Positions 23,825 through 46,277 of a DNA stretch of 64,000 nucleotides are shown here, piece by piece. The stretch spans positions 42,110-106,109 of the forward strand of contig JAZDHG010000016.1 of the NCBI GenBank assembly GCA_043806135.1, written 5' to 3'. The position numbers and the translations under genes are program-made. Below the pieces are notes generated by a model. It did no database searches and was not told where the DNA came from. It saw only the letters and a list, made by a program, of their open reading frames with translations. The DNA is from Candidatus Omnitrophota bacterium (GTDB lineage: Bacteria; Omnitrophota; Gorgyraeia; B26-G9). Position 1 is the first letter of the stretch; every line of letters begins with the position of its first letter.

Positions 23825-23841
23825 ACTGATTTGAAATATAA

Positions 23842-23876
23842 GCCCTCGCCGGTTTCTCCGGCGGGGGCTTTTTTAT
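23842..23876 (+). terminator. Rho-independent terminator after the porin gene
   Basis: A GCCCTCGCCGG / CCGGCGGGGGC stem is followed by TTTTTT. Confidence 0.7.
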
Positions 23877-24309: not shown

Positions 24310-24338
24310 TTGACACTTTGTACTTTTTTAAGTATTAT
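24310..24338 (+). promoter_or_regulatory. Near-consensus sigma70-type promoter upstream of the chemotaxis operon
   Basis: TTGACA, a 17-nt spacer, then TATTAT, about 60 nt upstream of the MCP start codon. Confidence 0.5.
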
Positions 24339-24397: not shown

Positions 24398-26104
24398 GTG
24401 TTTAAATTTTTGCCAAAAAATCTAGAGTTTAAGATTTTATCTTGGGTAGGGATAGCGTTGATTGTTATTTTGGGATTGATGTCAATAATTACGGTTGCAT
24501 TTCAACACAGCACTTCCCTTACGCAGGAACACAGGCTCTCTGGAACATTAGCCCGTAGTATTTTAAATGCTATCCGCTATCCTCTGCTCGGGGGAGACCA
24601 GAAAGTGGTGCAGAAAATTTTTAATTACCTGATCGATCAGGAAGAGATAGTTCATCTTTACCTGACAGACAATGATGGAAAAATTAAATGCAGTACCAAG
24701 AAAGAGAAAATCGGTAAATTTATCAATTTTAACGAAATTATTAAAAGGATCGAGACAAGCAAGGATAAGTGCTTACAGGAATCGACGGTCCTTAAGGGAG
24801 GAACTGCTCAGAAGGTTTTTAGTACATATATTCCTGTTTATAATGAGCCTGAATGTAATAGCTGTCATGGTAAAAACGATGAAGTTCTGGGAATATTAGG
24901 GGTAGATCTTAAAATGGATCTACTCTTGGCAGCGATGCGCGGAATCACATCCAGAGGGATTTTTCTCGCTGTACTTGGTACTCTTATCATAAGCTTCTTG
25001 ATCTTGGTATTGCTGCGCAAACTGGTTATCATCCCGGTAAAAAAACTGGTACAGGCAAGTGTGCCGGCAACCAAGGGGGATTTGACCCAGATCGTGGATA
25101 TCGATAGCGAAGATGAAATAGGTCTTCTCGGCCGCTCCTATAACACCATTATAAATAATGTTCATAATATGGTTTGCAGCATCAGAGATCTTGCTTCGAA
25201 AGTTTCCAGTTTCGCTCAAGAGATATCAACATCATCCAAGGAAATGAATGCTTCTACCCAGGAAATATCCGCGACTATTCAAAAGATTGCCAAAGGTGTT
25301 ACTACTCAGGCAAAAAGAGTTGAGGATACTTCCCGTTTAATGGAGGCCATGTCCAGTTCTGTACGCCGGGTTGCTGAGAATGCTCAGTTAGCTACAGCGG
25401 CATCTGAAAAATCACTTAGTCAGGCTGAAAGCGGCGGAATCGCTACACATGAGGCGGTAGAAAAGATGAATAAAATCACAACTACTGTTTCCAATGCGGC
25501 TGCTGTTGTTCAATCTTTGGGTGAAAAATCTCAACAGATCGGACAGATCACAGAGACGATCACAAATATTGCTGATCAGACAAATCTGCTTGCGCTTAAT
25601 GCCGCGATTGAGGCTGCGCGCGCAGGAGAGGCCGGGCGCGGTTTTGCGGTTGTTGCGGAAGAAGTTCGTAAGCTTGCAGAGGGATCGGCTGAAGCGGCAA
25701 GAAGGATAGGGGCGTTGATAAAAGGTATTCAGATTGAGACGCCTAAAGCGGTTAAGTCGATCGAAGCAGGGACCAAAGAGGTTAATGAAGGTGCCTTGAT
25801 CGTATCGAGAGTTTCTGATTCGTTGACTGAAATTATTGAAACAGCACAACTGGCAGCGTCAAAGGTTAAGGAAATCACTACTGCTACTGAGACGCAGCTT
25901 TCCAATTCAGAGAAGATTGTTAAAGCCGTGGATGAAGTTGCTGTAGTTGCCGAAGAATCTGCTTCGGCAACAGAGCAGGCATCAAGTTCCGCACAAGAAC
26001 AGACAGCTTCCATGGAAGAGTTGACGGCTTCAGCAGAAGAACTGGCGCGGTTGTCTCTGGATTTGCAGGGCTTTGTCGGCAAATTCAAATTAAAAGATAA
26101 GTAA
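24398..26104 (+). CDS. Methyl-accepting chemotaxis protein with a periplasmic sensor domain containing a CxxCH heme-c binding motif
   Basis: TM1 at residues 13-35, a periplasmic region of about 150 aa containing CNSCH, TM2, a HAMP domain, and the highly conserved MCP signalling domain ([32 protein letters not shown]). Confidence 0.85.
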
Positions 26105-26196: not shown

Positions 26197-26709
26197 ATGG
26201 CTGATAAGGGCAAGATAAAAGAAGAAGTTCAGTTGGTTGTTTTTAAGATCGGGGATGAAGAATTCGGAGTAGAAATCAATCAGGTAAGAGAAATTGTTAA
26301 GCTTGTTTCGATCACCCGGATGCCGAAGGCTCCTGTGTTTATTGAAGGGGTTGTGAACTTAAGAGGGCAGATAATCACGGTAATTGATCTTGCCAAAAGG
26401 CTTGATCTGCCTTCAACGGGCAGGACAGATTCTACGAGAATTATGGTTGTTGAAGTTGGGGAAGATACCGTAGGGATGATCGTTGATTCGGTTTCTGAAG
26501 TATTGCGGCTTTCTACGGATAATATAGAAGATACCCCTGCGCTTATTGAGACAGAGGTCCATGAAAAATACCTGAGAGGCGTGGGTAAAAGTGAAGATAG
26601 ATTGCTGATTTTGCTTGACTTAAACGAAGTGTTGAGCACGGACGAGATCAAGCATATTTCAAAGCATGTCGAAACAATGAAGGATAGTGTAAAAAAAGAA
26701 GAAAAATAA
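26197..26709 (+). CDS. cheW: Chemotaxis coupling protein CheW
   Basis: 170 aa with a CheW-like domain (FGVEINQVREIVKLVSITRMPKAPVFIEGVVNLRGQIITVIDL). Confidence 0.85.
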   Translation: MADKGKIKEEVQLVVFKIGDEEFGVEINQVREIVKLVSITRMPKAPVFIEGVVNLRGQIITVIDLAKRLDLPSTGRTDSTRIMVVEVGEDTVGMIVDSVSEVLRLSTDNIEDTPALIETEVHEKYLRGVGKSEDRLLILLDLNEVLSTDEIKHISKHVETMKDSVKKEEK

Positions 26710-26733: not shown

Positions 26734-27108
26734 ATGGGAGTAAAAGTTTTAGTTGTTGATGATGCTGTTTTTATGCGTAAAATGATTGGCGATATCCTTA
26801 AAAAAGAAGGATATGAGGTTGCCGGAGAAGCTGAGAACGGTAAAGAGGCTGTGGATAAGTATACAGAGCTTTCTCCGGACTTAGTGACTATGGATATAGT
26901 TATGCCCAAAGTGGGAGATATCGACGGGATCGGGGCAGTTAAGCAGATAATGCAAAAAGATGGAAAAGCTAAGATTCTTATGGTAAGCGCTATGGGACAG
27001 CATGCATTGGTTGTGGAGGCAATTCAAGCAGGAGCAAAAGATTTTGTAACTAAGCCGTTCCAGCCTTCACGCGTACTTGAAGCTGCAAAGCGTGTTTTGG
27101 AAAGCTAA
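26734..27108 (+). CDS. cheY: Chemotaxis response regulator CheY (stand-alone receiver)
   Basis: 124-aa REC domain with the acidic pocket (VLVVDD), a phospho-acceptor Asp in DIVMP, and a conserved Lys (KPF). Confidence 0.85.
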   Translation: MGVKVLVVDDAVFMRKMIGDILKKEGYEVAGEAENGKEAVDKYTELSPDLVTMDIVMPKVGDIDGIGAVKQIMQKDGKAKILMVSAMGQHALVVEAIQAGAKDFVTKPFQPSRVLEAAKRVLES

Positions 27109-27168: not shown

Positions 27169-27780
27169 TTGTCAAAAGATAAAATTATTTTAACTGATAA
27201 GCAAAAAGATGTTTTAAAAGAGATGGCCAACATTTGCGCCGGGAACGCGGCGACGTCTTTGTCTCAATTGCTTAATAAAAGAATTGAGATGAATGTGCCG
27301 CATGTTGAGTTTATACCTGTTTCTTCTGTACCTGAGGCTGTTGGCGGTGCCGAAACATTGGTAGTTGGAGTTGTTTTTCAGGTTTTTGGTGATGCTCCCG
27401 GGGTAATTCTTCTTCTTTTCCCCCAGCAAGATGCTCATGTTCTTGCAGAAATACTTACCGGAAAGAACAATATTAACGGAATATTCACAGAAATGGATCA
27501 ATCGGCAATTAAGGAAGCTGGAAGCATCCTTTCTGGAGCATACTTGAATACGCTTACTGCATTCACCCAGTTGGGGCTGATACCTTCAACGCCGGGTATA
27601 GTAGTAGATATGGCTGGTGCATTGATAGATGATATTCTTATCGAGCTCGCTGCAGTTACCGAATATGCGTTATTGATCGATTCGGAATTTATTGATGCTG
27701 AGAAGAGCGTTAAAGGGCATTTCTTTTTACTACCCAATCCTGGAAGTTTAGAAGCAATTTTATCTGCAATCGGAGCATAA
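27169..27780 (+). CDS. cheC: CheC-family chemotaxis phosphatase
   Basis: EMANICAGNAATSLSQLL matches the CheC/CheX/FliY consensus, and cheD follows. Confidence 0.75.
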   Translation: MSKDKIILTDKQKDVLKEMANICAGNAATSLSQLLNKRIEMNVPHVEFIPVSSVPEAVGGAETLVVGVVFQVFGDAPGVILLLFPQQDAHVLAEILTGKNNINGIFTEMDQSAIKEAGSILSGAYLNTLTAFTQLGLIPSTPGIVVDMAGALIDDILIELAAVTEYALLIDSEFIDAEKSVKGHFFLLPNPGSLEAILSAIGA

Positions 27781-27781
27781 A

Positions 27782-28276
27782 ATGGATTATGAGACAAACG
27801 AATTTCATGTCGGAATGGCTGACTCGAAAAGCGCGAAAGCACCTACTGTCCTTACATCATTAGGTCTTGGTTCCTGTGTGGGAGTTGTCTTATATTATGC
27901 CCGAGAGAAAATAGGCGGACTTGCCCATATAATGCTGCCGGAAATTGAATTAGTAAAGAACAAATCTAACCGGGCAAAATTTGCCAATACGGCAATCCCG
28001 GATCTGTTGGAAAAAATGGAAGCCCTTGGTGCGGACAGGCGTTTTGTGAAAGCTAAAATTATGGGCGGTGCGCATATGTTTGGGTTTTCTAAAACAAATA
28101 AAATTTTTAATATAGGGGAACGTAATATTGAAAAAACCAGGGAAGTATTGCAATCATTGAATATTAGGATTGCCGCTGAAGATGTCGGCGGATCTCATGG
28201 CCGGTCGCTTTATTTTTACTTGGAGACAGGCGATGTAAGAGTAAGAACAATTGCTCATGGAGAGAGAACATTATGA
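27782..28276 (+). CDS. cheD: Chemoreceptor glutamine deamidase CheD
   Basis: 164 aa with the motif VGMADSKSAKAPTVLTSLGLGSCVGVVLY, a CheD signature that includes the catalytic Cys. Confidence 0.85.
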   Translation: MDYETNEFHVGMADSKSAKAPTVLTSLGLGSCVGVVLYYAREKIGGLAHIMLPEIELVKNKSNRAKFANTAIPDLLEKMEALGADRRFVKAKIMGGAHMFGFSKTNKIFNIGERNIEKTREVLQSLNIRIAAEDVGGSHGRSLYFYLETGDVRVRTIAHGERTL

Positions 28277-29316
28277 TTCGAGTCCTTATTGTTGATGACT
28301 CAGCTTTGATGCGCAGACGTATCAGCGATATTTTGAGTTTAGATAGCGAAATTGAGGTCCTGGATTGTGCAAAAACCGGGGCAGAAGCTATTAAAAAAGC
28401 CGTGAAAATGAAGCCGGATGTGATAACACTGGATCTGTCCATGCCGGATATCGATGGATTAACTGCGCTTACTTATATAATGACTGAGGTGCCGACACCG
28501 GTTGTTATTATCAGCGCGAACGCGTCTGCAGGCGGGGCCAACGCATTAAAGGCATTAGAGCTTGGAGCGGTAGAAATTGTGAATAAGCCAAGCGGCGAAA
28601 TATCGCTTGATATAGAAAACGTTGATCAGGAAATTGTACGTAAAGTAAAATCAGCCAGCAAGGTAGATGTTAAGAGAGTCAGGGCTGTTTTTAATATGTT
28701 TAAAAATATAGCGCCTGCCGTACAGCCCAAGGTGCCGGCTGGTTTAAATAAGATCGTAGCTATAGGGGCTTCTACCGGAGGTCCGAAAGCAATTAAAGAA
28801 ATACTTCCTTATTTTGCAGCGGACATTCCGGCGGCATTTTTGTTTGTGCAGCATATGCCGGCAGGGTTTACCCGTTCTATGGCGGAAAGATTAAACTGGC
28901 TGACAAAGATTGACGTAAAAGAAGCTGAAGAAGGTGATATAATCCAGGCCGGGCACGGATATATCGCACCGGGTGATTTTCATATGGTTGTGGAAATGCA
29001 TAATAATAATGCGGTTATACGTCTAAACACAGGTCCGAAAGTTAACAGAGTTCGCCCTTCAATATCTGTAATGATGGATTCTGTGGTTAAGATCTTTGGA
29101 GCAAAGACAATAGGCGTTTTACTTACAGGGATGGGGCAGGACGGCGTGTCGGGCATGAGAAATATTAAAAATGCGGGGGGATTAACATTGGCTGAGGATA
29201 AATCCAGCTGTGTTGTCTATGGGATGCCGCGGGTAGCGATAGAAGAAGGAATTGTAGATAAGGTTTTACCTATATCGCATATGGGCCTTGAAATAATGAA
29301 GCATATTAAGATATAA
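28273..29316 (+). CDS. cheB: Chemotaxis protein-glutamate methylesterase CheB (REC + methylesterase)
   Basis: 347 aa with an N-terminal REC domain and a CheB catalytic domain (GASTGGP, HMPAGFTRS). Translationally coupled to cheD. Confidence 0.88.
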   Translation: MIRVLIVDDSALMRRRISDILSLDSEIEVLDCAKTGAEAIKKAVKMKPDVITLDLSMPDIDGLTALTYIMTEVPTPVVIISANASAGGANALKALELGAVEIVNKPSGEISLDIENVDQEIVRKVKSASKVDVKRVRAVFNMFKNIAPAVQPKVPAGLNKIVAIGASTGGPKAIKEILPYFAADIPAAFLFVQHMPAGFTRSMAERLNWLTKIDVKEAEEGDIIQAGHGYIAPGDFHMVVEMHNNNAVIRLNTGPKVNRVRPSISVMMDSVVKIFGAKTIGVLLTGMGQDGVSGMRNIKNAGGLTLAEDKSSCVVYGMPRVAIEEGIVDKVLPISHMGLEIMKHIKI

Positions 29317-29329
29317 AAGGATTTAACAA

Positions 29330-31357
29330 ATGGGAGTTGAGCAATATAGAACATTATTTGTTGCCGAATCTGAAGAGCATTTGCAAATAATAAATAATGC
29401 TGTACTTGTTTTAGAAAAAGACCCTCAGAATACAAAAATTTTAAACGAGATTTTCCGCAGTGTACATACTTTAAAGGGCATGTCGGCCACGATGGGGTTT
29501 GAGGCTCTTACAAAATTGACCCATAAGATGGAAGACGTCCTTGATATCTTTAGAACCCAAAAGATCGCTGTTGCTATAGAGGTTGTTGACAGCTTGTTTG
29601 ATTGTTTGGATATGCTCCAAATGCTGCTGGATGAGATAAAACAGGAAAAGGATTTAAAATTAGATGTTGATGAGATTATTGTCCGGCTTGAGAGTGTCAT
29701 TCCTTCAATCTCAGAGATAAAACAGGCTAAAGTAGAAGTAAGGAAAGAAATATGTTTGACTTCTTTGGAAAAGCAAAACCTGAGCAGTGTATTTGCCGAC
29801 CGGAAGTCAAAAATTTATGTAATAGAGATATATCTTAGCGCTGATTGTCAGTTAAAATCAGTGCGGGTTTTTATGATTTTTCATAAGCTTGAACAAATCG
29901 GTGAAGTCATAAAATCTGCCCCTTCGATCGAAGATATGGAAATGAACCGGCTGGGACAGGTGTTTTCCCTGCTGTTTTTGAGTAGCTTATCAAAGAAAAA
30001 GATTGAAGAAGTCTTGAAGATGGTAATGGAAGTTGAAAAGGTCGTTGTAAATCATATTTTGGATATAGATGAGTTGCCGGAGGAAAAGAACAATACCCTT
30101 GAAACTAATGTCACCTTGGCTGTTAATAAAAACAAGGCAGAAGACGCAGCGCAGCAGCTAAGCTTTAAAAAAATACAAAGCATCAGGGTCAGTACGCAGC
30201 GACTGGATAAGCTTATGAATTTTGTCGGGGAGCTGGTAATATCCAAAATTCGCCTTATGCAGATTGCCAAGACGTATCAGCTTAAGACATTAAATGAGAT
30301 TTTGACGAGTATAGACCGCCTGACCAGTGATTTGCAGGATGAGGTAATGCAGGCTCGCCTTATACCTATGTCTCAGGTTTTTGACCGCTTTCCGCGAATG
30401 GTAAGGGATCTTGCGCGCAGTGAAAAAAAACAGATCAATCTGGAAGTTACGGGCGGAGAGATAGAGCTTGATAGAACGGTCCTTGATGAAATAGCTGATC
30501 CATTGGTGCATCTTTTGCGAAACAGCATTGATCATGGGATTGAATTGCCGCGGGATCGCAAGGCAAAGAATAAAAGCCTGGTGGGCACAATAAAGTTGTC
30601 TGCTTTGAGAGAACGGACATATGTGTTGATACGGGTCTCTGATGACGGTAAGGGGATCAATCCGAACAAATTGCGTAACATCGCTGTAAAGAAGGGGTTT
30701 ATGGAGGAAGAAGAAGCTAGTAAAACAAGCGATATGGATATGCTTAATATCATTCTTCTTCCAGGATTCAGCTCCGCAACAGAGATAACAGATACCTCAG
30801 GCCGCGGAGTAGGCATGGATGTTGTAAAGACAAAAGTAGAATCTTTAGGCGGAAGCCTTGTGTTTGATTCCGAGGTTGACAAGGGAAGCAATTTTAACTT
30901 AAAACTGCCGCTTACAGTTGCTATTATCAAAGCAATGCTCGTGAAAGTGAATAATGAGATTTATGCTGTTCCGATAGCAAATATTGCCGAAACAGTAAAA
31001 GTTAAAAAGAGTAAGATCAAACATATAGAAAAATTTGAAGTAATAAATTTGCGTAATGAAGTTCTTCCATTGCTTCGTTTGGGAAACGCTTTGAAAAGCC
31101 TGGATTTTAATTCCTTACAAAATGATGATGAGGCTCAGGCAAAGGAGCAGAAGGAAGATCAAGAGACCGCTATCGTGGTTGTGGAGAGCGGTACGAAAAA
31201 AGCAGGACTGATTGTGGACCAGGTATTAGGACAACAGGAAGTCGTTATAAAATCAGTCGGAACTTTCTTAAAGGGGATCAAGGGATTTGCAGGGGCAACG
31301 ATATTGGGGGACGGAAGAGTGGCATTAATCCTTGATGTTGCCACTTTAATTGGTTAG
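29330..31357 (+). CDS. cheA: Chemotaxis histidine kinase CheA
   Basis: 675 aa with an Hpt domain (HTLKGMSATMGF), a dimerisation domain, an HATPase domain (DDGKGIN, GRGVGMDVV) and a C-terminal CheW-like domain. Confidence 0.9.
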   Translation: MGVEQYRTLFVAESEEHLQIINNAVLVLEKDPQNTKILNEIFRSVHTLKGMSATMGFEALTKLTHKMEDVLDIFRTQKIAVAIEVVDSLFDCLDMLQMLLDEIKQEKDLKLDVDEIIVRLESVIPSISEIKQAKVEVRKEICLTSLEKQNLSSVFADRKSKIYVIEIYLSADCQLKSVRVFMIFHKLEQIGEVIKSAPSIEDMEMNRLGQVFSLLFLSSLSKKKIEEVLKMVMEVEKVVVNHILDIDELPEEKNNTLETNVTLAVNKNKAEDAAQQLSFKKIQSIRVSTQRLDKLMNFVGELVISKIRLMQIAKTYQLKTLNEILTSIDRLTSDLQDEVMQARLIPMSQVFDRFPRMVRDLARSEKKQINLEVTGGEIELDRTVLDEIADPLVHLLRNSIDHGIELPRDRKAKNKSLVGTIKLSALRERTYVLIRVSDDGKGINPNKLRNIAVKKGFMEEEEASKTSDMDMLNIILLPGFSSATEITDTSGRGVGMDVVKTKVESLGGSLVFDSEVDKGSNFNLKLPLTVAIIKAMLVKVNNEIYAVPIANIAETVKVKKSKIKHIEKFEVINLRNEVLPLLRLGNALKSLDFNSLQNDDEAQAKEQKEDQETAIVVVESGTKKAGLIVDQVLGQQEVVIKSVGTFLKGIKGFAGATILGDGRVALILDVATLIG

Positions 31358-31415: not shown

Positions 31416-32012
31416 ATGGCTGAGTTAACAGATGTTCAGCTGGATGCGTTACGTGAAATGGGTAATATCGGAGCAGGAAATGCGGCAACAGCACTTTCTC
31501 AGCTGATTAGCGAAACAATTGAGATCAGTGTTCCGTCTGTAAAGGTTGTGCCTTTGGATAACGTATCATATGTACTTGGCGGTCCTGAGAGGCTTGTTTA
31601 TGTTGTATATCTTGAAGTCCTCAGAGAAATGAATGGGACCATGTTGACTATTTTTTCACCGGAAAGCGCGGCTTTTCTGACGAAAAGGCTCTTAGGAGAA
31701 GATACGGTTGATATGCAAACCGAGATAGCCCAGTCAGCGCTAAAAGAGGTCGGATCTATTCTGTGCGGTTCCTATATTAGCGCCTTGACGCAGGTAGTTG
31801 CAATGCATGCTGTGGCAAGTGTTCCGGCCATGGCTAATGATATGCTCGGAGCAATGCTTAATTTTATTCTTGTAGAGATCGGGCAAGTTGCTGATGAAAT
31901 TTTTCTTATTAATGTAGAATTATTTGTTGCGAATACAAGGCTGGAATGTTCGCAGCTGTATTTGCCTAAGCCAGATACCTTGGAGGCTGTGCTTGCTGCG
32001 CTTGGCATGTAA
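31416..32012 (+). CDS. Second CheC/CheX-family protein
   Basis: EMGNIGAGNAATALSQLI motif; 198 aa. Confidence 0.7.
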   Translation: MAELTDVQLDALREMGNIGAGNAATALSQLISETIEISVPSVKVVPLDNVSYVLGGPERLVYVVYLEVLREMNGTMLTIFSPESAAFLTKRLLGEDTVDMQTEIAQSALKEVGSILCGSYISALTQVVAMHAVASVPAMANDMLGAMLNFILVEIGQVADEIFLINVELFVANTRLECSQLYLPKPDTLEAVLAALGM

Positions 32013-32027
32013 GAGAGGAACTAAAGA

Positions 32028-34190
32028 ATGAAAATTAAATCGGATTTTGTTTTTTCTTTAGATATCGGAACGCGTAAGGTGGTAGGTATTGTTGCAGAAA
32101 AAACAGAGGATAAATTAAAGATTATTGATGTTGAGATCGTTGAGCATCAAACAAGAACAATGCTTGACGGCCAGATACATAATATAAATGAAGTGGCCAA
32201 GATCGTAACAGCTATTAAAGAGAGTCTTCAAAAGAGGCTGGCTGTAGAGTTTCGGGATGTGGGAGTAGCTGTTGCCGGGCGGGCGCTTAAGACAATTAAG
32301 GCAAAGATTGAAAAAGAACTTTCCCTAAACGAAGAGATTACCGAAGACGCTGTCCGCAATCTTGAGCTAGAGGCGGTAAGCAGTGTTTTAAATAATGCAG
32401 AGAGTGATTTCGGAAGCGGTGATTTTTATTGTGTCGGTTACAGTGTGGTATATTATGAACTGGACGGGGCACGAATCGGAGACTTGTTAGGTCATTTCGG
32501 CCGCAATATGTCAGTTGAGGTGATAGCAACATTTTTACCCCGCGTGGTCCTAGACAGTATGCTTAGTGTTTTACGCCGCGCAGGGCTTGAAATAATTAAT
32601 CTTACCTTAGAGCCGATAGCAGCAATAAATGCTATTATTCCTACAGATATCCGCAGGTTAAATCTTTTACTATTAGATATCGGTGCCGGTACATCAGACA
32701 TTGCTTTGACAAAGGACGGGACTGTTTTTGCTTATGGTATGGTTCCGGAAGCAGGCGATGAAATAACTGAATTTTTGTGTGAAAAATTTATTATTGATTT
32801 CAGAACGGCAGAAATTATTAAAAAGCAGCTATTAAGACAGCCAAAGGTGTATTTTAAAGATATTCTCGGGCGCGAACATAATGTTGAATCACAGGAAATT
32901 ATTAATGCGATCCGTCCTCGTGTAAATAAACTTGCAGAGTCTATAGTACGTACTGTGCTTGAACTTAATCAAAAAGCACCTCATGCCGTGGTTTTAGTCG
33001 GAGGAGGAAGTCTTACGCCTCTATTTGAAAAGGAGCTTGCCGTAAGCTTTCCTATGAAGGAAGAAAATATCGGGATAAGATTACCGGAGATGATCCATGA
33101 AGTGGTAGATAAGACAGGAAAGCTTAAAGGGCCGGACATGGTAACGCCGATTGGTATTTGTATTATGACCGCTAGATCCACGGGATTAAAGTTTATCGAT
33201 TTACATGTTAATGATAAACGGGTCAATGTACTTGATATGCAGCAAAATCTTGATGTGCTGAGTGCCCTAGTTGCTGCCGGAGTTGATAAAATGAAGCTGT
33301 ATGGTAAAATAGGCCATGCTATTTGCGTAGAGGTAAACGGCCGTTTAAAAGTGATCCGGGGGCAAATGGGGAAGCCGGCACAAATAAAACTTAATGATCA
33401 GAAGGCTGATTTAACAACAAAGGTTAAGACTGGAGACAGGATATTTTTTGAAGATGCGGAAAACGGACATAATGCACAGGGGAAAATAGCTGATGTTGTG
33501 GAGATTGAAACGGTCAAGGTTACGGTCAATTCGCAGCAAGTTGAGGTCAGTCCTCAAATTTTTATGAAGGGAAATGTCGTAGCTCCCGATACCGAGCTTA
33601 CAGACCGTGCTACTATTGGATATAAAGAAGATGTCAGGGTAAGAGATATATTAGCGGCGATTAATATTGATGCTAGTTCTCTTCAAGAACGGGAAATTGT
33701 AGTTCGTGTAAATAAAGAGCCGAAGGTATTGTCGCAGAGCAGTTTTTTACTGCTTGTCAACGGGAAAAGGTCAATACTGGATTCAACCGTCCCCAATGGA
33801 AGTATCATTGAGTTTAAACAGGACCAGACGTTCTTTTATAAGATAAAAGATATCGTTGAGCTTCCGTCCGCTGCCAAAAGTATAGAAGTTATTTTAAATG
33901 GGAAAAAACAAGTTATACCGGGAAATGAGGGAAAAATTTTTATGAATGGACAGCAGGTAAACCCGGATGAATTTATAATTGACAGGGCTGAGATTATTAC
34001 GCGGCCTCCGGAAAAAGTTCCGCCAACAGTTTCTCAGGTGCTTGAGAACCTTGAGCTGAATTTAGACGAGCAAAAAGGGAAGCTTATGAAAATCACGGTT
34101 AACGGACAATCTGCCGGTTTTACGACGCCTTTATCTGAGGGGACAGACATTACGATTAAATTTATTGAAAGGGAAGATCTGATCAGTTGA
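32028..34190 (+). CDS. FtsA/PilM-like actin-fold (ASKHA) ATPase fused to a C-terminal array of ~5 tandem beta-grasp (ThiS/MoaD-like) repeats
   Basis: The N-terminal ~390 aa carry FtsA-like motifs (FSLDIGTRKVVGIV, LLLDIGAGTSDIAL, VVLVGGGSLTPLFEKELA). The C-terminal ~330 aa contain repeated ~65-aa modules with the pattern V-V-(V/L)NG....(V/I)......GD-I-F. Confidence 0.6.
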   Translation: MKIKSDFVFSLDIGTRKVVGIVAEKTEDKLKIIDVEIVEHQTRTMLDGQIHNINEVAKIVTAIKESLQKRLAVEFRDVGVAVAGRALKTIKAKIEKELSLNEEITEDAVRNLELEAVSSVLNNAESDFGSGDFYCVGYSVVYYELDGARIGDLLGHFGRNMSVEVIATFLPRVVLDSMLSVLRRAGLEIINLTLEPIAAINAIIPTDIRRLNLLLLDIGAGTSDIALTKDGTVFAYGMVPEAGDEITEFLCEKFIIDFRTAEIIKKQLLRQPKVYFKDILGREHNVESQEIINAIRPRVNKLAESIVRTVLELNQKAPHAVVLVGGGSLTPLFEKELAVSFPMKEENIGIRLPEMIHEVVDKTGKLKGPDMVTPIGICIMTARSTGLKFIDLHVNDKRVNVLDMQQNLDVLSALVAAGVDKMKLYGKIGHAICVEVNGRLKVIRGQMGKPAQIKLNDQKADLTTKVKTGDRIFFEDAENGHNAQGKIADVVEIETVKVTVNSQQVEVSPQIFMKGNVVAPDTELTDRATIGYKEDVRVRDILAAINIDASSLQEREIVVRVNKEPKVLSQSSFLLLVNGKRSILDSTVPNGSIIEFKQDQTFFYKIKDIVELPSAAKSIEVILNGKKQVIPGNEGKIFMNGQQVNPDEFIIDRAEIITRPPEKVPPTVSQVLENLELNLDEQKGKLMKITVNGQSAGFTTPLSEGTDITIKFIEREDLIS

Positions 34191-34507
34191 GAAGAACTTA
34201 TTGTAAAGGCAAAGAAATCTGAGTTTGCCACAGAGAGAAATAAATAGCATAATTTTCAAAATAAGTTTATGCAATAAAAAGAATTAGCGAGCATCATTTG
34301 TTTGATGCCGCTGTTTTTTTATACAGCAGAACCGGCATTTGCGGGCTTTTCTTTTTAAAATATAAAATATAAAATCTAAAATCCTGCAAATTGTTGCCCC
34401 CGTTAGAGAAAGCCAACGATTTTAATCGGTAGTGGAATATATTTTATAAAGCCGACGCTGGTTTAAAGCCATCTTCGGCGTATACCGCTGGCTAGAATAG
34501 AAAAATT

Positions 34508-34802: not shown

Positions 34803-36794
34803 TTGATGAAAAAACTGGTTATTGTAGAATCCCCGACAAAAGCAAGAACAATCAGCCGTATTTTGGGCAAAGAATTTGTTGTATATTCTTCCATGGGTCA
34901 TATTATTGATCTGCCGAGGCGCAAAATCGGCGTTGATATTGATGATAACTTTGGTCCTACTTATGTAGTCATCCCGGGGAAAAAGAAAATTCTCACACAG
35001 CTTAAAAAGGAAGTAAAAAATTCAGATATTGTTTACCTGGCCACTGATCAGGACAGAGAAGGAGAGGCAATAAGCTGGCATTTAAGAGATAGGCTGCAGG
35101 ACAAGAAGAGAAAGCTTGAATTCCTTAGGGTTATTTTTCATGAAATAACACCACAGGCGATCAAGGAAGCTTTTGCGGCTACAGAGAAGATTGACGAAAA
35201 TAGAGTAAATGCGCAGCAGGCAAGGCGAATTTTAGACAGGATAGTGGGATATTTTTTGAGTCCCCTGCTTTGGAAAAAAGTGGCAAAAGGATTAAGCGCA
35301 GGGCGTGTACAATCCGTTGCGTTAAAATTGATCGTACAAAGAGAAAGACAGATACTAAGCTTTATTCCGCAGGAATACTGGAAAATTGAAGCGCTGCTTA
35401 AAAGAAAAAAAGAAAAATATGAGGAGCTTACCGCTGAGCTTATTAAATATGAAAATAAAAAAATTGATTTAAAGAACGAAGTGCAGTCAAGCGGTATAAT
35501 CGAGGCATTACAAAAAGAGGACTATATAGTATCTTCTGTAAATAAGAAGGAAAAAAAGCGCAATCCATACCCTCCTTTTATTACTAGCACTTTACAGCAG
35601 GATGCTTTTAATAAGCTTAAATTTACCACGCGAAAGACAATGATGATCGCTCAGCAGCTTTATGAAGGAGTAGAGCTAGGCGATGAGGGGCCCATAGGTC
35701 TTATAACCTATATGCGTACAGATTCTGTGCGTATTGCGGATATTGCCTTAAATCACATACGCAAGTTTATCAGTGACCATTATGGCGCAAAATATCTTCC
35801 GGCAAAACCGCATGTATATAAATCAAAGAAATCAGCACAGGAAGCGCATGAAGCTATCCGTCCGACTTCAATTGAGCGCAGGCCCCAGGAACTGGAAAAG
35901 CACCTAAGCCCTGATCAGTATAGGCTGTATGAGCTTATATGGAAAAGGACTATGGCCAGCCAGATGAAGGCTGCTGTATATATGACAAGCACTATCGAGA
36001 TTGCAGCCGGTAAATACCTTTTTTCCCTTTCCGGATCGATCCTTATTTTTGATGGCTTTTTGAGAATATACCAGGAAGAGGGCAAAGAAAAACTTAAATT
36101 GATCCCTGATGTGGAGAAAGGGGAAAAACTTGAGCTGCTGAAATTGATCCCCTCACAGCATTTTACGCGACCGCCGGCAAGGTACTCTGAATCCTCGCTG
36201 GTAAAGGATCTGGAAGAAAAAGGCATAGGACGGCCGAGTACTTATGCGCCTATTGTGCATACGCTTATTATGCGTAATTATATTCGCAGGGAAAAGGGAT
36301 ATTTGACCTGTACTGAATTGGGGATGAAGGTAAATGATATTTTGGTCGAGTATTTCCCAAATATTATCAATATTACCTTTACAGCGATAATGGAAGAGGA
36401 GCTGGACAAAGTAGAAGAAGGCAGTATGAAATGGGACCAGGTTTTAAAGGATTTCTATATTCCGTTTAAGAAAAAGCTTGCCTACGCACAGACAAATCTG
36501 AAAAAAGAAGTTATTGAAACCGACCAAAACTGTGAGCAATGCGGCAGACCGATGGTTATTAAATGGTCGCGTACCGGAAAGTTTTTGAGCTGCTCCGGAT
36601 TCCCTGAATGCCGCAATGCAAAATCAATATCCTCAGGGGTTAAATGTCCGAATCAGGATTGTGGCGGGGAGCTGATTCAGCGTAGTTCAAGGCGGGGAAT
36701 GCGTTTTTACGGATGTAGTAATTATCCGAAATGTACTTTTTTATCAAAAACACTTCCTAAAGAAGATGGAACTGCTGAAGATGAAGCTCAGTAA
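34803..36794 (+). CDS. topA: DNA topoisomerase I
   Basis: 663 aa with a Toprim N-terminus (LVIVESPTKARTI), the catalytic Tyr region, and three to four C-terminal Cys4 zinc ribbons. Confidence 0.92.
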   Translation: MMKKLVIVESPTKARTISRILGKEFVVYSSMGHIIDLPRRKIGVDIDDNFGPTYVVIPGKKKILTQLKKEVKNSDIVYLATDQDREGEAISWHLRDRLQDKKRKLEFLRVIFHEITPQAIKEAFAATEKIDENRVNAQQARRILDRIVGYFLSPLLWKKVAKGLSAGRVQSVALKLIVQRERQILSFIPQEYWKIEALLKRKKEKYEELTAELIKYENKKIDLKNEVQSSGIIEALQKEDYIVSSVNKKEKKRNPYPPFITSTLQQDAFNKLKFTTRKTMMIAQQLYEGVELGDEGPIGLITYMRTDSVRIADIALNHIRKFISDHYGAKYLPAKPHVYKSKKSAQEAHEAIRPTSIERRPQELEKHLSPDQYRLYELIWKRTMASQMKAAVYMTSTIEIAAGKYLFSLSGSILIFDGFLRIYQEEGKEKLKLIPDVEKGEKLELLKLIPSQHFTRPPARYSESSLVKDLEEKGIGRPSTYAPIVHTLIMRNYIRREKGYLTCTELGMKVNDILVEYFPNIINITFTAIMEEELDKVEEGSMKWDQVLKDFYIPFKKKLAYAQTNLKKEVIETDQNCEQCGRPMVIKWSRTGKFLSCSGFPECRNAKSISSGVKCPNQDCGGELIQRSSRRGMRFYGCSNYPKCTFLSKTLPKEDGTAEDEAQ

Positions 36795-41856: not shown

Positions 41857-42912
41857 ATGAATAATAAACAATATTTAGCAGGGCTTTACCCCGAAGAACT
41901 TCAAACCATAGTAGCGGGCTTAAACCATCCAGTATACAGGTCAAAGCAGATACAGGAGTGGATATTTAAGAAAAGTGTTCTGTCTTTTTCAGAGATGAAA
42001 AACCTTCCCGGAGAACTAAGGGAAAAGCTGGAGATTAAAAATTGTCCTGTCAGTCTTCATCAAAAATTAAAATTAACCTCTGCTGTTGATAAAACCTCTA
42101 AATATATTTTTATTACCGATGATGATAATTCTTTAGAAACTGTTTTGATACCGACAGCCAAGCGGGCTACTGTATGCGTATCTACTCAGGTAGGATGTGC
42201 CTTTGGGTGCTTATTTTGCGCAAGCGGCAGCGGAGGACTGGTGCGCGATCTTAGGGCAGATGAGATCGTTTCGCAGCTATTGCTTGTAAAAAAAGACAAC
42301 CCCGAACAGCCGGTCACTAATATTGTATTTATGGGCATGGGAGAGCCGCTGGCAAATTATGAGAATACTTTAAAGGCAATCAGGATTTTAAACCATCCGG
42401 ATTGTCTGGGAATAGCCGCAAGGAGGATAACCATTTCAACCTGCGGGTTGCCGGATGCGATATTGCAGCTTGCCAAAGAGAACATACAGTTTGAATTATC
42501 GATCTCGTTGCATGCCGCGGATAATGATACGCGAAACCGTCTTATGCCGATAAACAAGAAATTCCCCCTGAATATGCTGATGAAGGCGGCCAGGGAATAC
42601 ACTCAGGTGACAAACCGCATGATCACATTTGAATATGTGATAATGGACGGGATCAATGATTCAATAAAAGCAGCTTTAGATATCGCGCATCTATTCTTTG
42701 CACTTAAGTGTAAACTTAATATTATCCCGTTTAATCCTGCTGGGGCAATGGATTTTAAGCGCGTGAAAAAAACACAGCTTGAAGAATTCACGCATATGCT
42801 TCAAAGGCTTAAGATCAATTTCACTCTAAGGCGTTCGCGGGGTGCGGATATCCAAGGCGCCTGCGGACAATTGAGAGCAAACTTAGATAAGGGGTTAGGG
42901 GATAGCGTATAG
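41857..42912 (+). CDS. rlmN: 23S rRNA (adenine2503-C2)/tRNA methyltransferase RlmN (radical SAM)
   Basis: 351 aa with the radical SAM CxxxCxxC motif in VGCAFGCLFCASG, conserved RlmN N- and C-terminal motifs, and the catalytic Cys in GACGQL. Confidence 0.92.
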   Translation: MNNKQYLAGLYPEELQTIVAGLNHPVYRSKQIQEWIFKKSVLSFSEMKNLPGELREKLEIKNCPVSLHQKLKLTSAVDKTSKYIFITDDDNSLETVLIPTAKRATVCVSTQVGCAFGCLFCASGSGGLVRDLRADEIVSQLLLVKKDNPEQPVTNIVFMGMGEPLANYENTLKAIRILNHPDCLGIAARRITISTCGLPDAILQLAKENIQFELSISLHAADNDTRNRLMPINKKFPLNMLMKAAREYTQVTNRMITFEYVIMDGINDSIKAALDIAHLFFALKCKLNIIPFNPAGAMDFKRVKKTQLEEFTHMLQRLKINFTLRRSRGADIQGACGQLRANLDKGLGDSV

Positions 42913-42937: not shown

Positions 42938-43007
42938 ACATAAAGATCAGCTGCCCTGAGCCGCCACGATTAGCGGCGGGGAAGGGTTAGCTGAATTGCC
43001 TTGTTAT
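42938..43007 (+). repeat. attC-like imperfect palindromic repeat A
   Basis: ATAAAGATCAGCTGCCCTGAGCCGCCACGATTAGCGGCGGGGAAGGGTTAGCTGAATTGCCTTGTTAT. The stop codon of the downstream minus-strand gene overlaps the GTTAT box. Confidence 0.6.
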
Positions 43008-43282
43008 CTTTTTTCCATCATTCTGCCATTAACAAATTTATGAATAATGCTTGCTAATAAAGTTTGATAAGGAATGCCTTCTTCTATTGCTCTAATTTGG
43101 ATTCCATTGAGATCCTTTGAAGATATTCTAATGTTCACGCGTTTATCTTTTTTTAAGGTGTTTTTAGCATATTTTTGATGTTTTTTGATCTCTTGTTTTA
43201 AATCTTTTATAGATTCCCATTCCTTCCGGTTATAAGAATCTACTAAGTCTTGTTCATATTTGTCTAAATTATTTTTTTTCAT
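43004..43282 (-). CDS. brnA: BrnA antitoxin (RHH/CopG-like; type II TA)
   Basis: 92 aa with KDKRVNIRISSKDLNGIQIRAIEEGIPYQTLLASIIHKFVNGRM, a BrnA signature. Overlaps brnT by 4 nt. Confidence 0.8.
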   Translation of the reverse strand: MKKNNLDKYEQDLVDSYNRKEWESIKDLKQEIKKHQKYAKNTLKKDKRVNIRISSKDLNGIQIRAIEEGIPYQTLLASIIHKFVNGRMMEKR

Positions 43283-43563
43283 TTTTCACCTCGTATATAT
43301 TTTTTTGTAGCTTCACGGCTAGGGATAATAGTTTTTAGAAAATATGTGTCTCCTTTTTCTGCAACAAAAGGCACTAAATACGCATAATTATTTACATTAA
43401 CAATAAGAATGTTTTGATTGGGATATTTATTTTTATTCGGATGGTGTATTATATCAATAAGGTAACCTTTTTCTATGCAAGAAACTATTTCTTCAAAACA
43501 GATACCCCGATCATTTTTCAGCAGTTTATTTTTATCATTATCCCAATTATAGTATATATTCAT
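43279..43563 (-). CDS. brnT: BrnT toxin (DUF497 RNase; type II TA)
   Basis: 94 aa of DUF497-like sequence (NDRGICFEEIVSCIEKGYLIDII), paired with brnA. Confidence 0.75.
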   Translation of the reverse strand: MNIYYNWDNDKNKLLKNDRGICFEEIVSCIEKGYLIDIIHHPNKNKYPNQNILIVNVNNYAYLVPFVAEKGDTYFLKTIIPSREATKKYIRGEK

Positions 43564-43620
43564 AATTAAAATATATCACATTGTGTGCGCTTTGGCAACA
43601 AAATATTTTATATTAATATA

Positions 43621-43690
43621 ACATAAAAATCAGCTGCCCTGAGGCGGCGCCGAATGGCGGCGGGGAAGGGTTAGCTAATTGCTTTGTTAG
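43621..43690 (+). repeat. attC-like imperfect palindromic repeat B
   Basis: ACATAAAAATCAGCTGCCCTGAGGCGGCGCCGAATGGCGGCGGGGAAGGGTTAGCTAATTGCTTTGTTAG. Confidence 0.6.
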
Positions 43691-43693
43691 ATT

Positions 43694-43972
43694 TTACTGA
43701 TATCTATGTTTATCATACACTTCCTTGCGATGGCCTATTTTTAACACTATAATATCATTTTCTTCGATTTTATAGATAACTCTATAATCTCCCACGCGTA
43801 GTTTTCGGTATCCTTGCAGGCTTCTACGCAAGGGTTCACCATATTTGATAGGATCAGATAGCAGCCTATTTTCAATAGCTTTTCTAATTCTTGTTTTTAT
43901 GTTTTTTGGAATTCCTGAAATATCTTTTTTGATTTCAGGATGATAGGAAATCTGATAGTTCATTAGTTCCAA
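43694..43972 (-). CDS. relE: RelE/ParE-family toxin (type II TA)
   Basis: 92 aa with the RelE/StbE fold pattern (RKLRVGDYRVIYKIEENDIIVLKIGHRKEVY). Confidence 0.8.
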   Translation of the reverse strand: MELMNYQISYHPEIKKDISGIPKNIKTRIRKAIENRLLSDPIKYGEPLRRSLQGYRKLRVGDYRVIYKIEENDIIVLKIGHRKEVYDKHRYQ

Positions 43973-44190
43973 ATATCCTTGTGAGATATTTTTTTATTCT
44001 TTGAAAGAGAATTGTCTCTTTTTCGTGCCTGTTCTTGCCAATATAAATCTTCTCTAATTTCCAAAGCTTCTTTTATAAGATCTCTGGAGAAAAGAGATAG
44101 GGAAATTCCCTGGCTTTGAGCTGATTTATTAAGAATATTATATATTTCAGGGTCAAGTACGACATTTATTCTAGGATTTTTAGTTGGCAT
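43963..44190 (-). CDS. RHH (CopG/RelB-like) antitoxin partner of RelE
   Basis: 75 aa with an N-terminal ribbon-helix-helix segment (RINVVLDPEIYNILNKSAQSQGISLSLFSRDLIKEAL). Overlaps the relE start. Confidence 0.7.
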   Translation of the reverse strand: MPTKNPRINVVLDPEIYNILNKSAQSQGISLSLFSRDLIKEALEIREDLYWQEQARKRDNSLSKNKKISHKDIWN

Positions 44191-44310
44191 ATTTTTACCT
44201 CCACAATAAGTGTATCACATGTGATGAACCTTGTCAATGGGTAATTATCCCATTTTTGCATTTAATGGTAGGGGGGGTAAAAATAGTCGCTGTCCCTATT
44301 TTTCCCTAGA

Positions 44311-44660
44311 TAAACAATAAATTCCCCCTGAATATGCTGATGAAGGCGGTCAGGGAATATACTCAAGCGACAAACCGCATGATCACCTTTGAGTATGTGA
44401 TAATGGACGGGATTAATGATTCAATAAAAGCAGCTTTAGATATTGCGCATCTACTCTTTGCACTTAAGTGCAAACTTAATATTATCCCGTTTAATAATGT
44501 TGGGGCAATAGATTTTAAACGCGTGAAAAAAGCACAGCTTAAAGAATTCACGCATATGCTCCAAAGGCTTAAGATTAATTTTACTATAAGGCGTTCGCGG
44601 GGTGCGGATATTCAAGGCGCCTGCGGGCAGTTAAGGTTACATGTAGATAAGGGTAATTAG
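44311..44660 (+). pseudogene. rlmN: Duplicated 3' fragment of rlmN (last ~108 codons; ~90% nt identity to 42551-42890)
   Basis: Direct comparison with rlmN 42551-42890. The translation (MLMKAVREYTQATNRMITFEYVIMDGINDSIKAALDIAHLLFALKCKLNIIPFN...RRSRGADIQGACGQL) matches the RlmN C-terminus, but the radical SAM N-terminus is absent. Confidence 0.85.
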
Positions 44661-44746
44661 GCGTAAGCTGTAAGTTTTAAGCCTTAAGCAAAAACAGAAA
44701 GTATCCAATAAGTTTCTAAAAGTTTAGGTCTTATTACGTACAGCTT

Positions 44747-44820
44747 ATAACGTAAAAATCAGCTGCCCTAAGCCGACGCCAACTGACGGCGGGGAAGGGT
44801 TAGCTGGATTGTCTTGTTAG
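44747..44820 (+). repeat. attC-like imperfect palindromic repeat C
   Basis: ATAACGTAAAAATCAGCTGCCCTAAGCCGACGCCAACTGACGGCGGGGAAGGGTTAGCTGGATTGTCTTGTTAG. Confidence 0.6.
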
Positions 44821-44825
44821 AAATT

Positions 44826-45092
44826 CTATTCATAATGAGTCCACATGCGAATAATTTTTACTGTTTTATATTTTTTTAGAACTTGATAAACAATTCTATG
44901 TTGTATAGTTACTCTTCTTGAGTATGCGCCGGTTAAATCACCTACTAGCTTTTCGAATGGGGGGGGAGTCTTGAAAGGATTTCTCTTTATGATTTCCAGG
45001 ATAGCTTCGGCTTTAGGACACATACCACTGGCAGAAAGTTTCTTTGCGTCCTTCAAAGCTTGTTTTGTATAAACTATTTTCCAATTTACCAT
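44826..45092 (-). CDS. yoeB: YoeB/Txe-family toxin (type II TA)
   Basis: 88 aa with KIVYTKQALKDAKKL...LTGAYSRRVTIQHRIVYQV...IIRMWTHYE, a YoeB signature. Confidence 0.85.
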   Translation of the reverse strand: MVNWKIVYTKQALKDAKKLSASGMCPKAEAILEIIKRNPFKTPPPFEKLVGDLTGAYSRRVTIQHRIVYQVLKKYKTVKIIRMWTHYE

Positions 45093-45343
45093 GTTAATTT
45101 CTTATTGCATTCTTTAATTGGAGTTTTTAATCCCTTCCGAATTGATTCTCGCATTCCTGGAATAGAGATAAGATATAAGGTTTCCTGGATAGACCGCCAG
45201 TCATTTTCTGAAATTAAGACAGCATTATGTCTTTTTCCAGTAATCTGTATCGGTTCATGCGATAAGGCGGTCTTGTCTAATAATTTATATAATATGCTTC
45301 GTGCTTGACTTGCTGTTAAAGTAGTCACTGTAATCACCTCCAA
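45086..45343 (-). CDS. yefM: YefM/Phd-family antitoxin
   Basis: 85 aa of Phd/YefM-type N-terminus (LTASQARSILYKLLDKTALSHEPIQITGKRHNAVLISENDWRSIQETLYL). Overlaps yoeB by 7 nt. Confidence 0.85.
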   Translation of the reverse strand: MEVITVTTLTASQARSILYKLLDKTALSHEPIQITGKRHNAVLISENDWRSIQETLYLISIPGMRESIRKGLKTPIKECNKKLTW

Positions 45344-45414
45344 TTAAAGCGTACCACATCACGTACGTTTTGTCAATAATTGATTTTTATATTATTTATT
45401 GCTAACATTTGAGC

Positions 45415-45478
45415 TCAGGCAGAGGAAACCGACGCCATTTGGCAGCGGTTTGCGATTGCCTGGAGCGATTTGCTAGGA
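45415..45478 (+). repeat. Degenerate attC-like repeat D'
   Basis: The core ACCGACGCCATTTGGCAGCGG resembles GCCGACGCCAACTGACGGCGG of repeat C. The outer arms have diverged. Confidence 0.4.
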
Positions 45479-45479
45479 G

Positions 45480-45830
45480 CTATTTATTTTCTTCCTGAAT
45501 AATTTTTTCGATTTCTTTATGGAGAGAGGGGATTTTGTTAATAACTACATCCCACACAATATCATAATCTATGCCGAAGTAATCATGTATTAATATATCC
45601 CGCATGCCAGCCATAGCGCGCCACTCTATATAAGGATGTTTTTGTTTTAAGTTGTCAGGGGTATTTTTTGTAGCCTCTCCGATAATTTCTATACTACGGA
45701 CAAACGCTCGTTGGAGTGTTTCGTGCTGCATAAAATTTTCTTTAGCCAATCCTTTTGTTTGACTTAAAATATATTTTGTTTCATCCAATATATGGTGAAG
45801 ATATTCATGCCCGGGAAATGACATATTCAA
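45480..45830 (-). CDS. hepT: HepT-like toxin (DUF86, RNase; HepT/MntA type II/VII TA)
   Basis: 116 aa with the Rx4HxY motif in MRDILIHDY and a DUF86 helical pattern. Confidence 0.8.
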   Translation of the reverse strand: MNMSFPGHEYLHHILDETKYILSQTKGLAKENFMQHETLQRAFVRSIEIIGEATKNTPDNLKQKHPYIEWRAMAGMRDILIHDYFGIDYDIVWDVVINKIPSLHKEIEKIIQEENK

Positions 45831-46113: not shown

Positions 46114-46277
46114 ATTACTTATTATAACTATTCTTATTGGAGTTTTCAATAGATAGTATTTTTTTTGAATGAACCCAAACTAAAATTAAAGAGATTATCC
46201 AAAGTATCCCAGTAGCAAAGCCCCCCACCAATAATACTAAATAAAGCAGAAAGAAGCTATTCATTCATAATTTTTCA

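Follow-up and report, generated by a model that had tools for sequence, protein, structure and literature searches.

An FtsA-like ATPase with five beta-grasp-like repeats encoded by the last gene of a che operon in Candidatus Omnitrophota

What is an actin-fold ATPase doing at the end of a chemotaxis operon? The question is raised by a 64,000-nucleotide (nt) stretch of a Candidatus Omnitrophota contig, here called the window, in which the final gene of a compact che operon is an open reading frame (ORF) of 720 amino acids (aa) at positions 32028..34190 of the forward strand. We refer to this gene and to its product as X. Few signalling pathways have been charted as well as chemotaxis, and its inventory of parts is regarded as almost complete; the known array-positioning factors are ParA-like, not actin-like. 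The analysis described below places X in a discrete, unnamed family. X is an actin homologue of the FtsA/PilM type, and both its C-terminal module and its genomic association are new. Within the clade to which X belongs, the gene lies within or ends a che operon in 16/16 loci, and this suggests that X is an accessory chemotaxis component that has so far gone unrecognised.

The ATPase domain and the repeats of X

The protein encoded by X is a 100% match to V1739_01945, a hypothetical protein of a Candidatus Omnitrophota metagenome-assembled genome (MAG). Its parts are given below, the borders of modules R0 to R5 having been set from predicted secondary structure.

32028..34190, + strand, stop codon included: X, FtsA-like ATPase with five beta-grasp-like repeats (ORF with ATG start)
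32028..33176, + strand: FtsA/PilM-class actin-fold ATPase domain, aa 1-383 (TIGR01174, PDB profile, Foldseek, motifs)
33177..33320, + strand: R0, beta-hairpin and helix joining the ATPase to the repeats, aa 384-431 (DSSP strands 387-394 and 397-403, helix 410-416)
33321..33482, + strand: repeat R1, aa 432-485 (hhalign against R3, 95.9%, E 6.1e-9)
33483..33635, + strand: repeat R2, aa 486-536 (hhalign against R4, 98.7%, E 3.7e-16)
33636..33839, + strand: repeat R3, aa 537-604 (hhalign against R2, 95.5%, and against R5, 93.4%)
33840..34025, + strand: repeat R4, aa 605-666 (hhalign against R2, 98.7%)
34026..34187, + strand: repeat R5, aa 667-720 (Pfam ThiS match; clade-conserved G-F-T-T-P-L)

The ATPase domain was aligned end to end with the FtsA family. 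The NCBIfam model TIGR01174 (ftsA; equivalog cut-off 175.85 bits) matched aa 8-377 over model positions 2-368 of 371, at 111.2 bits. The NCBIfam models for EutJ, PilM and MreB covered X partially and at far lower scores, TIGR01175 (pilM; cut-off 133 bits) reaching 42.1 bits over aa 160-310 only; Pfam PilM_2 gave 27.1 bits at a gathering score of 27, over aa 11-110 only. A profile built from 58 homologues and searched against the PDB matched FtsA chains contiguously (3-356 against 8-369, E 1e-21), whereas MreB matched in the second half alone. The AlphaFold2 model of X (mean predicted local distance difference test, pLDDT, of 84) found FtsA structures as its top Foldseek matches (7q6i, E 6.6e-27, template-modelling (TM) score 0.72 normalised to the target), followed by PilM (E ~4e-19) and then by EutJ and MreB. 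In the comparison with FtsA, PilM, MreB and EutJ that the original prediction had proposed, FtsA is the closest of the four and PilM is second in fold.

An insert at approximately aa 85-171 of the model bears on the subclass. DSSP assigned it a beta-alpha-beta-beta-beta order at 88-171, which fits a 1C (SHS2-like) subdomain, and the model has no 1B subdomain. A 1C insert sets FtsA and PilM apart from other actins. By these features X shares with FtsA (TIGR01174; PDB 7q6i, 7q6g, 1e4f, 4a2a) the actin fold with 1C and without 1B, and it falls in the same FtsA/PilM actin subclass as PilM (PF11104, TIGR01175; PDB 2ych, 5eou). The three ATP-binding motifs are all present. Phosphate-1 (D12-x-G14-T15), phosphate-2 (D217-x-G-A-G-T-x-D224, with D217, G219, G221, T222 and D224) and the adenosine motif (G325-G326-G327) are invariant, alignment gaps aside, across 78 family members drawn from both clades. 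By this invariance the ATP site is under selection.

The remainder of the protein consists of repeats. The five units, of 50-68 aa each, matched one another in profile-profile comparisons with hhalign at probabilities of 62-98.7% (best E 3.7e-16; R2 against R3, E 1.5e-8), which marks the pattern as one of true homology rather than of chance. R0 matched them weakly; in the predicted structure, R0 and R1 together form the sole place with a hairpin-helix-hairpin-strand order. The Pfam ThiS model matched X at aa 665-710 (hidden Markov model positions 21-69 of 76; 26.9 bits against a gathering score of 22.5). Single repeats were mostly too short to score, a beta-grasp match coming from R5 (ThiS, 19 bits) and from the repeat consensus only, the latter matching ThiS at 33 bits, Ub-Mut7C at 25.8 and TGS at 24.9. 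Among homologues the scores rose to as much as 50 bits for ThiS, 38 for Ub-Mut7C, 28.7 for TGS and 26.6 for RnfH. A separate structure model of aa 383-720 (pLDDT 88) had linear tetra-ubiquitin (7yui, E 4e-6) at the top of its Foldseek matches, together with the bacterial multi-ubiquitin domain proteins 9cd2, 8u38 and 9d5b (E 4e-6 to 2e-5 and probability 0.99-1.0 over these top matches), and next to these ISG15 and the TGS region of SpoT. A relation to the S4 domain, at 16-25 bits only, was set aside because the matches to ThiS, TGS and the ubiquitin family were stronger and Foldseek agreed with the latter. A PDB sequence search with the C-terminal profile returned noise only, with no solved relative of the repeat module.

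Linear poly-ubiquitin, the bacterial multi-ubiquitin proteins and polyUbl (PMC1779556) resemble X in being built head to tail from small units, beta-grasp in their case and beta-grasp-like in X. The differences are of note. Identity between tandem ubiquitins and the X repeats is 8-13%, and the global TM score is 0.14-0.24, this low value being due to a different inter-domain geometry. The X repeats are fused to an ATPase and lack Gly-Gly termini: no repeat carries such an end, and the C-terminus of X reads ...IEREDLIS. One feature of the model also counts against an outright ubiquitin-like assignment, in that R2-R4 are predicted to put a helix before the first hairpin, unlike the canonical ubiquitin order. 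Considering this noncanonical order of elements, "beta-grasp-like" is the safe wording, and we keep to it. With it, both halves of the architecture first read from the sequence stand, namely a 720-aa ORF with a full FtsA-like ASKHA core and intact ATP motifs, and approximately five tandem beta-grasp-like repeats at its C-terminus, the latter on the strength of the hhalign homology, the ThiS matches and the Foldseek matches to poly-ubiquitin.

The che operon of the window and of related genomes

The genes that precede X on the same strand were annotated with Pfam and give the operon order mcp-cheW-cheY-cheC-cheD-cheB-cheA-cheC-X (MCP, methyl-accepting chemotaxis protein).

23840-23870: strong terminator-like hairpin, closing the gene that precedes the promoter-like site at 24310-24338
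24310..24338, + strand: best match to a sigma-70-like promoter (11/12), 5' of the MCP gene; a consensus match only
24398..26104, + strand: MCP with sensor, HAMP and MCPsignal domains (Pfam MCPsignal 9.2e-45, plus HAMP and Mcp40H-20_sensor)
26197..26709, + strand: CheW (Pfam CheW 8.7e-39)
26734..27108, + strand: CheY, a single receiver domain (Pfam Response_reg 7.4e-30)
27169..27780, + strand: CheC-type phosphatase, copy 1, followed by cheD (Pfam CheC 5e-17, two stretches)
27782..28276, + strand: CheD (Pfam CheD 2e-35)
28273..29316, + strand: CheB methylesterase (Pfam CheB_methylest 4.7e-66, and Response_reg)
29330..31357, + strand: CheA histidine kinase, Hpt-P2-dimerisation-HATPase-CheW (Pfam)
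31416..32012, + strand: CheC-type phosphatase, copy 2, directly 5' of X (Pfam CheC 7e-18)
34291..34308, + strand: weak terminator-like hairpin in the X-topA gap (6 pairs, 3 GC), not above chance expectation

The promoter-like site at 24310..24338 is probably the start of the operon. X starts 15 nt past the stop codon of the second CheC-type gene, with a Shine-Dalgarno-like AGAGGA motif upstream, and is followed by a gap of 613 base pairs and then by topA (34803-36794). Given the che genes upstream on the same strand, and the gap and topA downstream, X is the final gene of a compact che operon, close-packed against its neighbour as the original prediction had it. No cheR gene is present in the window, and Rfam and tRNA scans of the window, the 613-base-pair gap after X included, gave no matches. 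X itself matches no Che family in Pfam or NCBIfam.

The two CheC-type copies have points in common. Copy 2 also matched NCBIfam CheC_Thtogales (3.9e-48), under the cut-off. In both copies the first active-site motif, D-x3-E-x2-N, is intact, and the second reads S-x3-E-x2-S, with Ser in place of Asn. Because of this replacement in the second site, each copy may have only one functional phosphatase site.

A scan of one genome per species yielded at least 577 relatives of X. Genomic context was read for the best 80 of these and for further Omnitrophota contigs, with tblastn searches using the Che proteins of the window (80 loci), ORF maps and, for the further contigs, precomputed Pfam annotation; the trees were simple neighbour-joining (NJ) trees without support values. 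In the NJ clade that holds the window together with loci L001-L007, L009, L011 and L025, every locus is che-linked, the contig-truncated L025 retaining only a CheC fragment upstream of X. Five further Omnitrophota loci (L081 and L083-L086) are che-linked too, which brings the clade to the 16/16 loci mentioned above. The clade spans Omnitrophota, MAGs of the Planctomycetes-Verrucomicrobia-Chlamydiae (PVC) group and of Planctomycetales, Methylomirabilis and the archaeal genus Methanolobus. The expectation that orthologues in related genomes would be linked to che genes was thus borne out, in several bacterial phyla and in an archaeon.

The cheA-cheC-X order is kept in most loci of this clade, and three arrangements are seen around it. 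In type 1 (the window, L001, L006, L083, L086 and Methylomirabilis L011) the operon ends in cheB-cheA-cheC-X and topA follows, with one gene between X and topA in L011 and L083. In type 2 (L003, L004, L081, L084, L085) the order is cheY-cheC-cheA-(cheC)-X-comFB-cheR-cheY-cheD-cheB-cheC-cheW. In Methanolobus, where the context was checked in two genomes (L007 and L009), it is cheY-cheB-cheA-cheC-X-cheR-cheC-cheC-cheD. At the cheC-X junction the two genes overlap by 4 nt at the closest and are otherwise separated by no more than ~30 nt, except in L083, where the gap is 270 nt. In type 2 and in Methanolobus che genes lie on both sides of X, and its position in the operon is therefore no accident of being last. 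The genes concerned are as follows.

L007, 9986-12109: X family gene of Methanolobus, inside a bacterial-style che operon
L009, 9998-12115: X family gene of Methanolobus, inside a bacterial-style che operon
L003, 12287-12550: comFB (PF10719, c-di-NMP receptor family) after X, type 2
L004, 7973-8236: comFB after X, type 2
L081, 10526-10789: comFB after X, type 2
L084, 8193-8462: comFB after X, type 2
L085, 8264-8527: comFB after X, type 2

Genes for PilZ, MshEN-PilZ, REC-GGDEF and pilin-like N_methyl proteins flank the type 2 operons of L081, L084 and L085, and ComFB-CheR fusions in Omnitrophota are mentioned in PMC12448109. Together with the small comFB gene, these features point to an input of cyclic di-GMP into the type 2 che systems.

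Outside this clade the contexts are of other kinds. In Bacilli, X occupies a syntenic site between aroA/ccpA/acuABC and ytxJ/ytxH/ytxG/murC, and in Syntrophomonadaceae a site near an mreB-like gene, a tagA-like gene and ctsR-mcsAB-clpC (both assigned by eye, without Pfam). The conserved neighbours in Bacillota have no functional theme. Among the Bacillota and Thermotogota loci, che genes lie at a distance of 5-8 kb in two (L056, L057), and in three Clostridia loci (L008, L017, L049) a cheR-like gene lies beside X or within ~2 kb of it. Since many Bacillota and Thermotogota carry a protein of this architecture without che linkage, the basic activity of the family is not chemotaxis-specific.

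The pattern of conservation follows the same division. Residues that are invariant across the whole family lie almost all in the ATPase domain, and GFTTPL, FMNG, EF(I/L)ID, P565 and Q570 in the repeats are conserved in the che-linked clade and much less so in Bacillota. This pattern is in keeping with a shared ATPase engine whose partners differ from lineage to lineage, clade-specific motifs being what is expected if the repeats bind clade-specific partners.

A family without a name

The 120 best homologues of X are nearly all of 705-735 aa and were aligned over 98-100% of its length, and the members in Bacillota, Thermotogota and Methanolobus are of 695-749 aa. The architecture of the family is an FtsA-like ATPase of ~380 aa followed by the five-repeat module, to a total of ~700-730 aa, and X conforms to it. 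In an exhaustive search with a profile of the C-terminal module alone, 842 cluster representatives (clusters at 50% identity) scored E<=1e-3, and of these 629 scored E<=1e-10. The module sits at approximately aa 385-715 in full-length members (700-730 aa), shorter matches look like fragments, and eight unusually long members (745-871 aa) have no extra Pfam domains. The full-length members being alike, and the long ones being without added domains, the repeat module is confined to one architecture among the members examined.

Relatives were found in Omnitrophota, in PVC-group and Planctomycetales MAGs, in Methylomirabilis, in many Bacillota (Brevibacillus, Lysinibacillus, Aneurinibacillus, Oceanobacillus, Syntrophomonas, Heliobacterium, Desulfosporosinus, Dehalobacter, Halanaerobiales and Negativicutes), in Thermotogota and in the archaeon Methanolobus. 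With a Methanolobus query the protein was found in M. tindarius, M. vulcani, M. profundi, M. bombayensis, M. halotolerans, M. chelungpuianus and M. mangrovi. Its nearest relatives outside the genus are those of Omnitrophota, at ~40% identity. Sequence relationships of this kind suggest inter-domain horizontal transfer, which possibly covered the whole che-X block.

The public names of family members are automatic and inconsistent, varying between FtsA, MreB and PilM: "cell division FtsA domain-containing protein", "rod shape-determining protein", "pilus assembly protein PilM" and "SHS2 domain-containing protein". Neither Pfam nor NCBIfam has a model dedicated to the family. A full-text literature search, with subscription journals outside its scope, returned no account of the family and none of a che operon with an FtsA-like gene; the family is not described in a survey of Firmicutes division proteins or in the ComFB paper, and the word FtsA is absent from the 2006 survey of prokaryotic ubiquitin-like domains (Iyer et al., PMC1779556). 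The family is probably undescribed in the literature.

The rest of the window holds features of separate interest. Its pilus genes are scattered singly within clusters for amino-acid biosynthesis: a PilT-like T2SSE ATPase gene (6646-7746) lies between ilvN (6040-6513) and ilvC (7763-8764), and a prepilin peptidase (PilD) gene (11339-12349) overlaps the end of aroE (10467-11351) and precedes aroC. Directly after rlmN (41857-42912), a stretch of low guanine-plus-cytosine content (0.30-0.37; 43004-46149, - strand) contains four pairs of toxin-antitoxin-like small ORFs, assigned by eye. The first pair is at 43004-43563, followed by a RelE/ParE-like gene with a ribbon-helix-helix partner (43694-44190), a YoeB/Phd-like pair (44826-45343) and a HepT/DUF86 gene with a nucleotidyltransferase (45480-46149). 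A 108-aa duplicate of the RlmN C-terminus is encoded at 44334-44660 (+ strand). These observations suggest that the stretch is an island whose insertion into rlmN, at its 3' end, duplicated the target. Three ORFs, at 53823-54920 (365 aa), 447-1259 (270 aa) and 1271-2140 (289 aa), had no Pfam match at E<=1e-3.

Possible roles of X

We read X as an accessory component of the Che pathway because it is an integral gene of the che operon in its clade. FtsA and PilM are ATP-binding cytoplasmic adaptors that form polymers or clamp short peptides of their partners. We tentatively propose, as a serious possibility that stops short of being probable, that X is an ATP-dependent scaffold or adaptor of the pathway, acting with the co-encoded CheC/CheA module. 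Judged by its motifs, the ATPase domain would bind and hydrolyse ATP, and by analogy with FtsA and PilM it would probably self-associate or clamp a partner peptide in a nucleotide-dependent manner. The five repeats most likely act as a multivalent platform to which Che proteins would bind, above all the CheC-type phosphatase encoded directly upstream and the CheA/CheW core. X would then organise, localise or stabilise signalling complexes. Both roles suggested in the original prediction, positioning or scaffolding of arrays and a link to type IV pili, are plausible hypotheses, though they have to be squared with the wide occurrence of the family outside che operons in Bacillota and Thermotogota.

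ATPase-based accessory systems in or beside che operons have a precedent in ParC/ParP and PpfA, which organise arrays and are not part of core signalling. The likeness to X is an analogy of role only, and a hypothetical one for X. ParC and PpfA have a Walker-type ParA/MinD fold and a CheW-like partner, ParP, whereas the fold of X is that of actin.

Three observations, in addition to the noncanonical order of elements in R2-R4, weigh against the proposal that X serves the Che pathway. In Bacillota and Thermotogota, cheA is adjacent to X in 0 of ~69 loci, where the protein has the same architecture at 35-40% identity. None of the eight unusually long members is fused to a Che domain. In a quick NJ tree the X-adjacent CheC genes form no single clade, and there is therefore no sign of their co-evolution with X.

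A bolder form of the proposal goes beyond a scaffold. It makes X an unrecognised actin-like chemosensory ATPase, an ATP-dependent polymer or clamp bearing five ubiquitin-like domains. Such a protein would template, position or remodel the arrays of chemoreceptors and CheA, or recruit the CheC phosphatase to them, and would have been transferred horizontally, probably together with che genes, between Omnitrophota, Methylomirabilota and the PVC group on one side and Methanolobus on the other. We regard this fuller version as rather unlikely.

The alternative that best survives the evidence is that X has a general cellular role outside chemotaxis signalling, for example that of a cytoskeletal filament, of an Hsp70/EutJ-like chaperone or of an enzyme reactivase, and is merely co-transcribed with che genes in one lineage. 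Most members of the family, those of Bacillota and Thermotogota, are not che-linked and stand in unrelated, lineage-specific contexts; there are weak, partial matches to EutJ, DDR, EutA and the nucleotide-binding domain of DnaK; and the concentration of family-wide invariant residues in the ATPase domain is in keeping with such a role. Mere co-transcription accounts poorly, however, for a linkage that holds in all 16 loci down to ~40% identity, through several bacterial phyla and an archaeal genus, for the many loci in which X lies between che genes with the rest of the operon rearranged around it, and for the cheR-like gene found near X even in the three Clostridia loci. We consider a general role unlikely, if worth keeping in view.

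PilM links cytoplasmic ATPases to the PilNO platform, and X could in the same manner be an output adaptor that couples the Che system, through phosphorylated CheY or through CheC, to a machine of the type IV pilus or archaellum kind. The Pfam PilM_2 match at threshold and the rank of PilM as second-best fold class speak for this, as do the PilZ, MshEN-PilZ, REC-GGDEF and pilin-like genes around three che operons, and the presence of pilT-like and pilD genes in the window. Conservation of X across Methanolobus species is also in keeping with it; the archaellum, the motility organelle of Methanolobus, is a homologue of type IV pili. Against these stands the absence of pilN, pilO, pilP, pilQ, pilB and pilC next to X in any locus examined, and the Bacillota members are not linked to pilus genes either. 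In the window, 20-25 kb separate X from the pilT-like and pilD genes, which sit in the ilv and aro clusters and lend no specific support, and X is nearer to FtsA than to PilM both in sequence (111 against 42 bits) and in fold. On balance a pilus adaptor is improbable.

It is highly improbable that X is what its automatic annotations say, a divisome FtsA (the membrane tether of FtsZ) or a bona fide PilM. Those names, and the FtsA-type fold with its 1C subdomain, are in favour of such an identity, but the names contradict one another and X falls below both equivalog cut-offs. FtsA continues from its ATPase domain into a linker and an amphipathic membrane-targeting helix; X has no such helix at its C-terminus, and has in that place ~340 aa of predicted beta-rich, beta-grasp-like repeats (pLDDT 80-93). 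The ftsA gene belongs to the dcw cluster, whereas X is part of a che operon or, in Bacillota, occurs on its own; the dcw context (ftsQ/ftsZ) is absent here, the neighbours being cheA, cheC and topA, and it is absent likewise in 16 related loci. PilM is a soluble cytoplasmic protein that acts by clamping a partner peptide. It lacks any repeat array at its C-terminus, and the possibility that X would prove to be a PilM with pilNOPQ genes just beside it fell away with topA as the gene that follows. That the repeats serve, once released or conjugated, as sulfur carriers or ubiquitin-like modifiers (ThiS/MoaD, bacterial Bub/Bil) can scarcely be credited, since the ThiS match and the Foldseek matches to 9cd2, 8u38 and 9d5b that suggest it are opposed by the want of a free Gly-Gly end, by the absence of E1, E2, JAB, ThiF and MoeB genes nearby in any locus examined, and by a PADLOC match that is partial and of 17 bits. 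A defence-system reading of the Bub-like multi-ubiquitin matches was rejected on the same PADLOC score and the same lack of E1, E2 and JAB.

If X is indeed an accessory component of the Che pathway, it would represent a new class of such components, an actin-fold ATPase with a multivalent ubiquitin-like tail. It would also provide a handle on how arrays, or the CheC/CheD branch of adaptation, are organised in little-studied lineages. Apart from chemotaxis, the family adds a new and sizeable branch to the FtsA/PilM actin homologues, of at least 629 clusters at 50% identity (E<=1e-10), with members in the cultivable genera Brevibacillus, Lysinibacillus, Syntrophomonas and Methanolobus.

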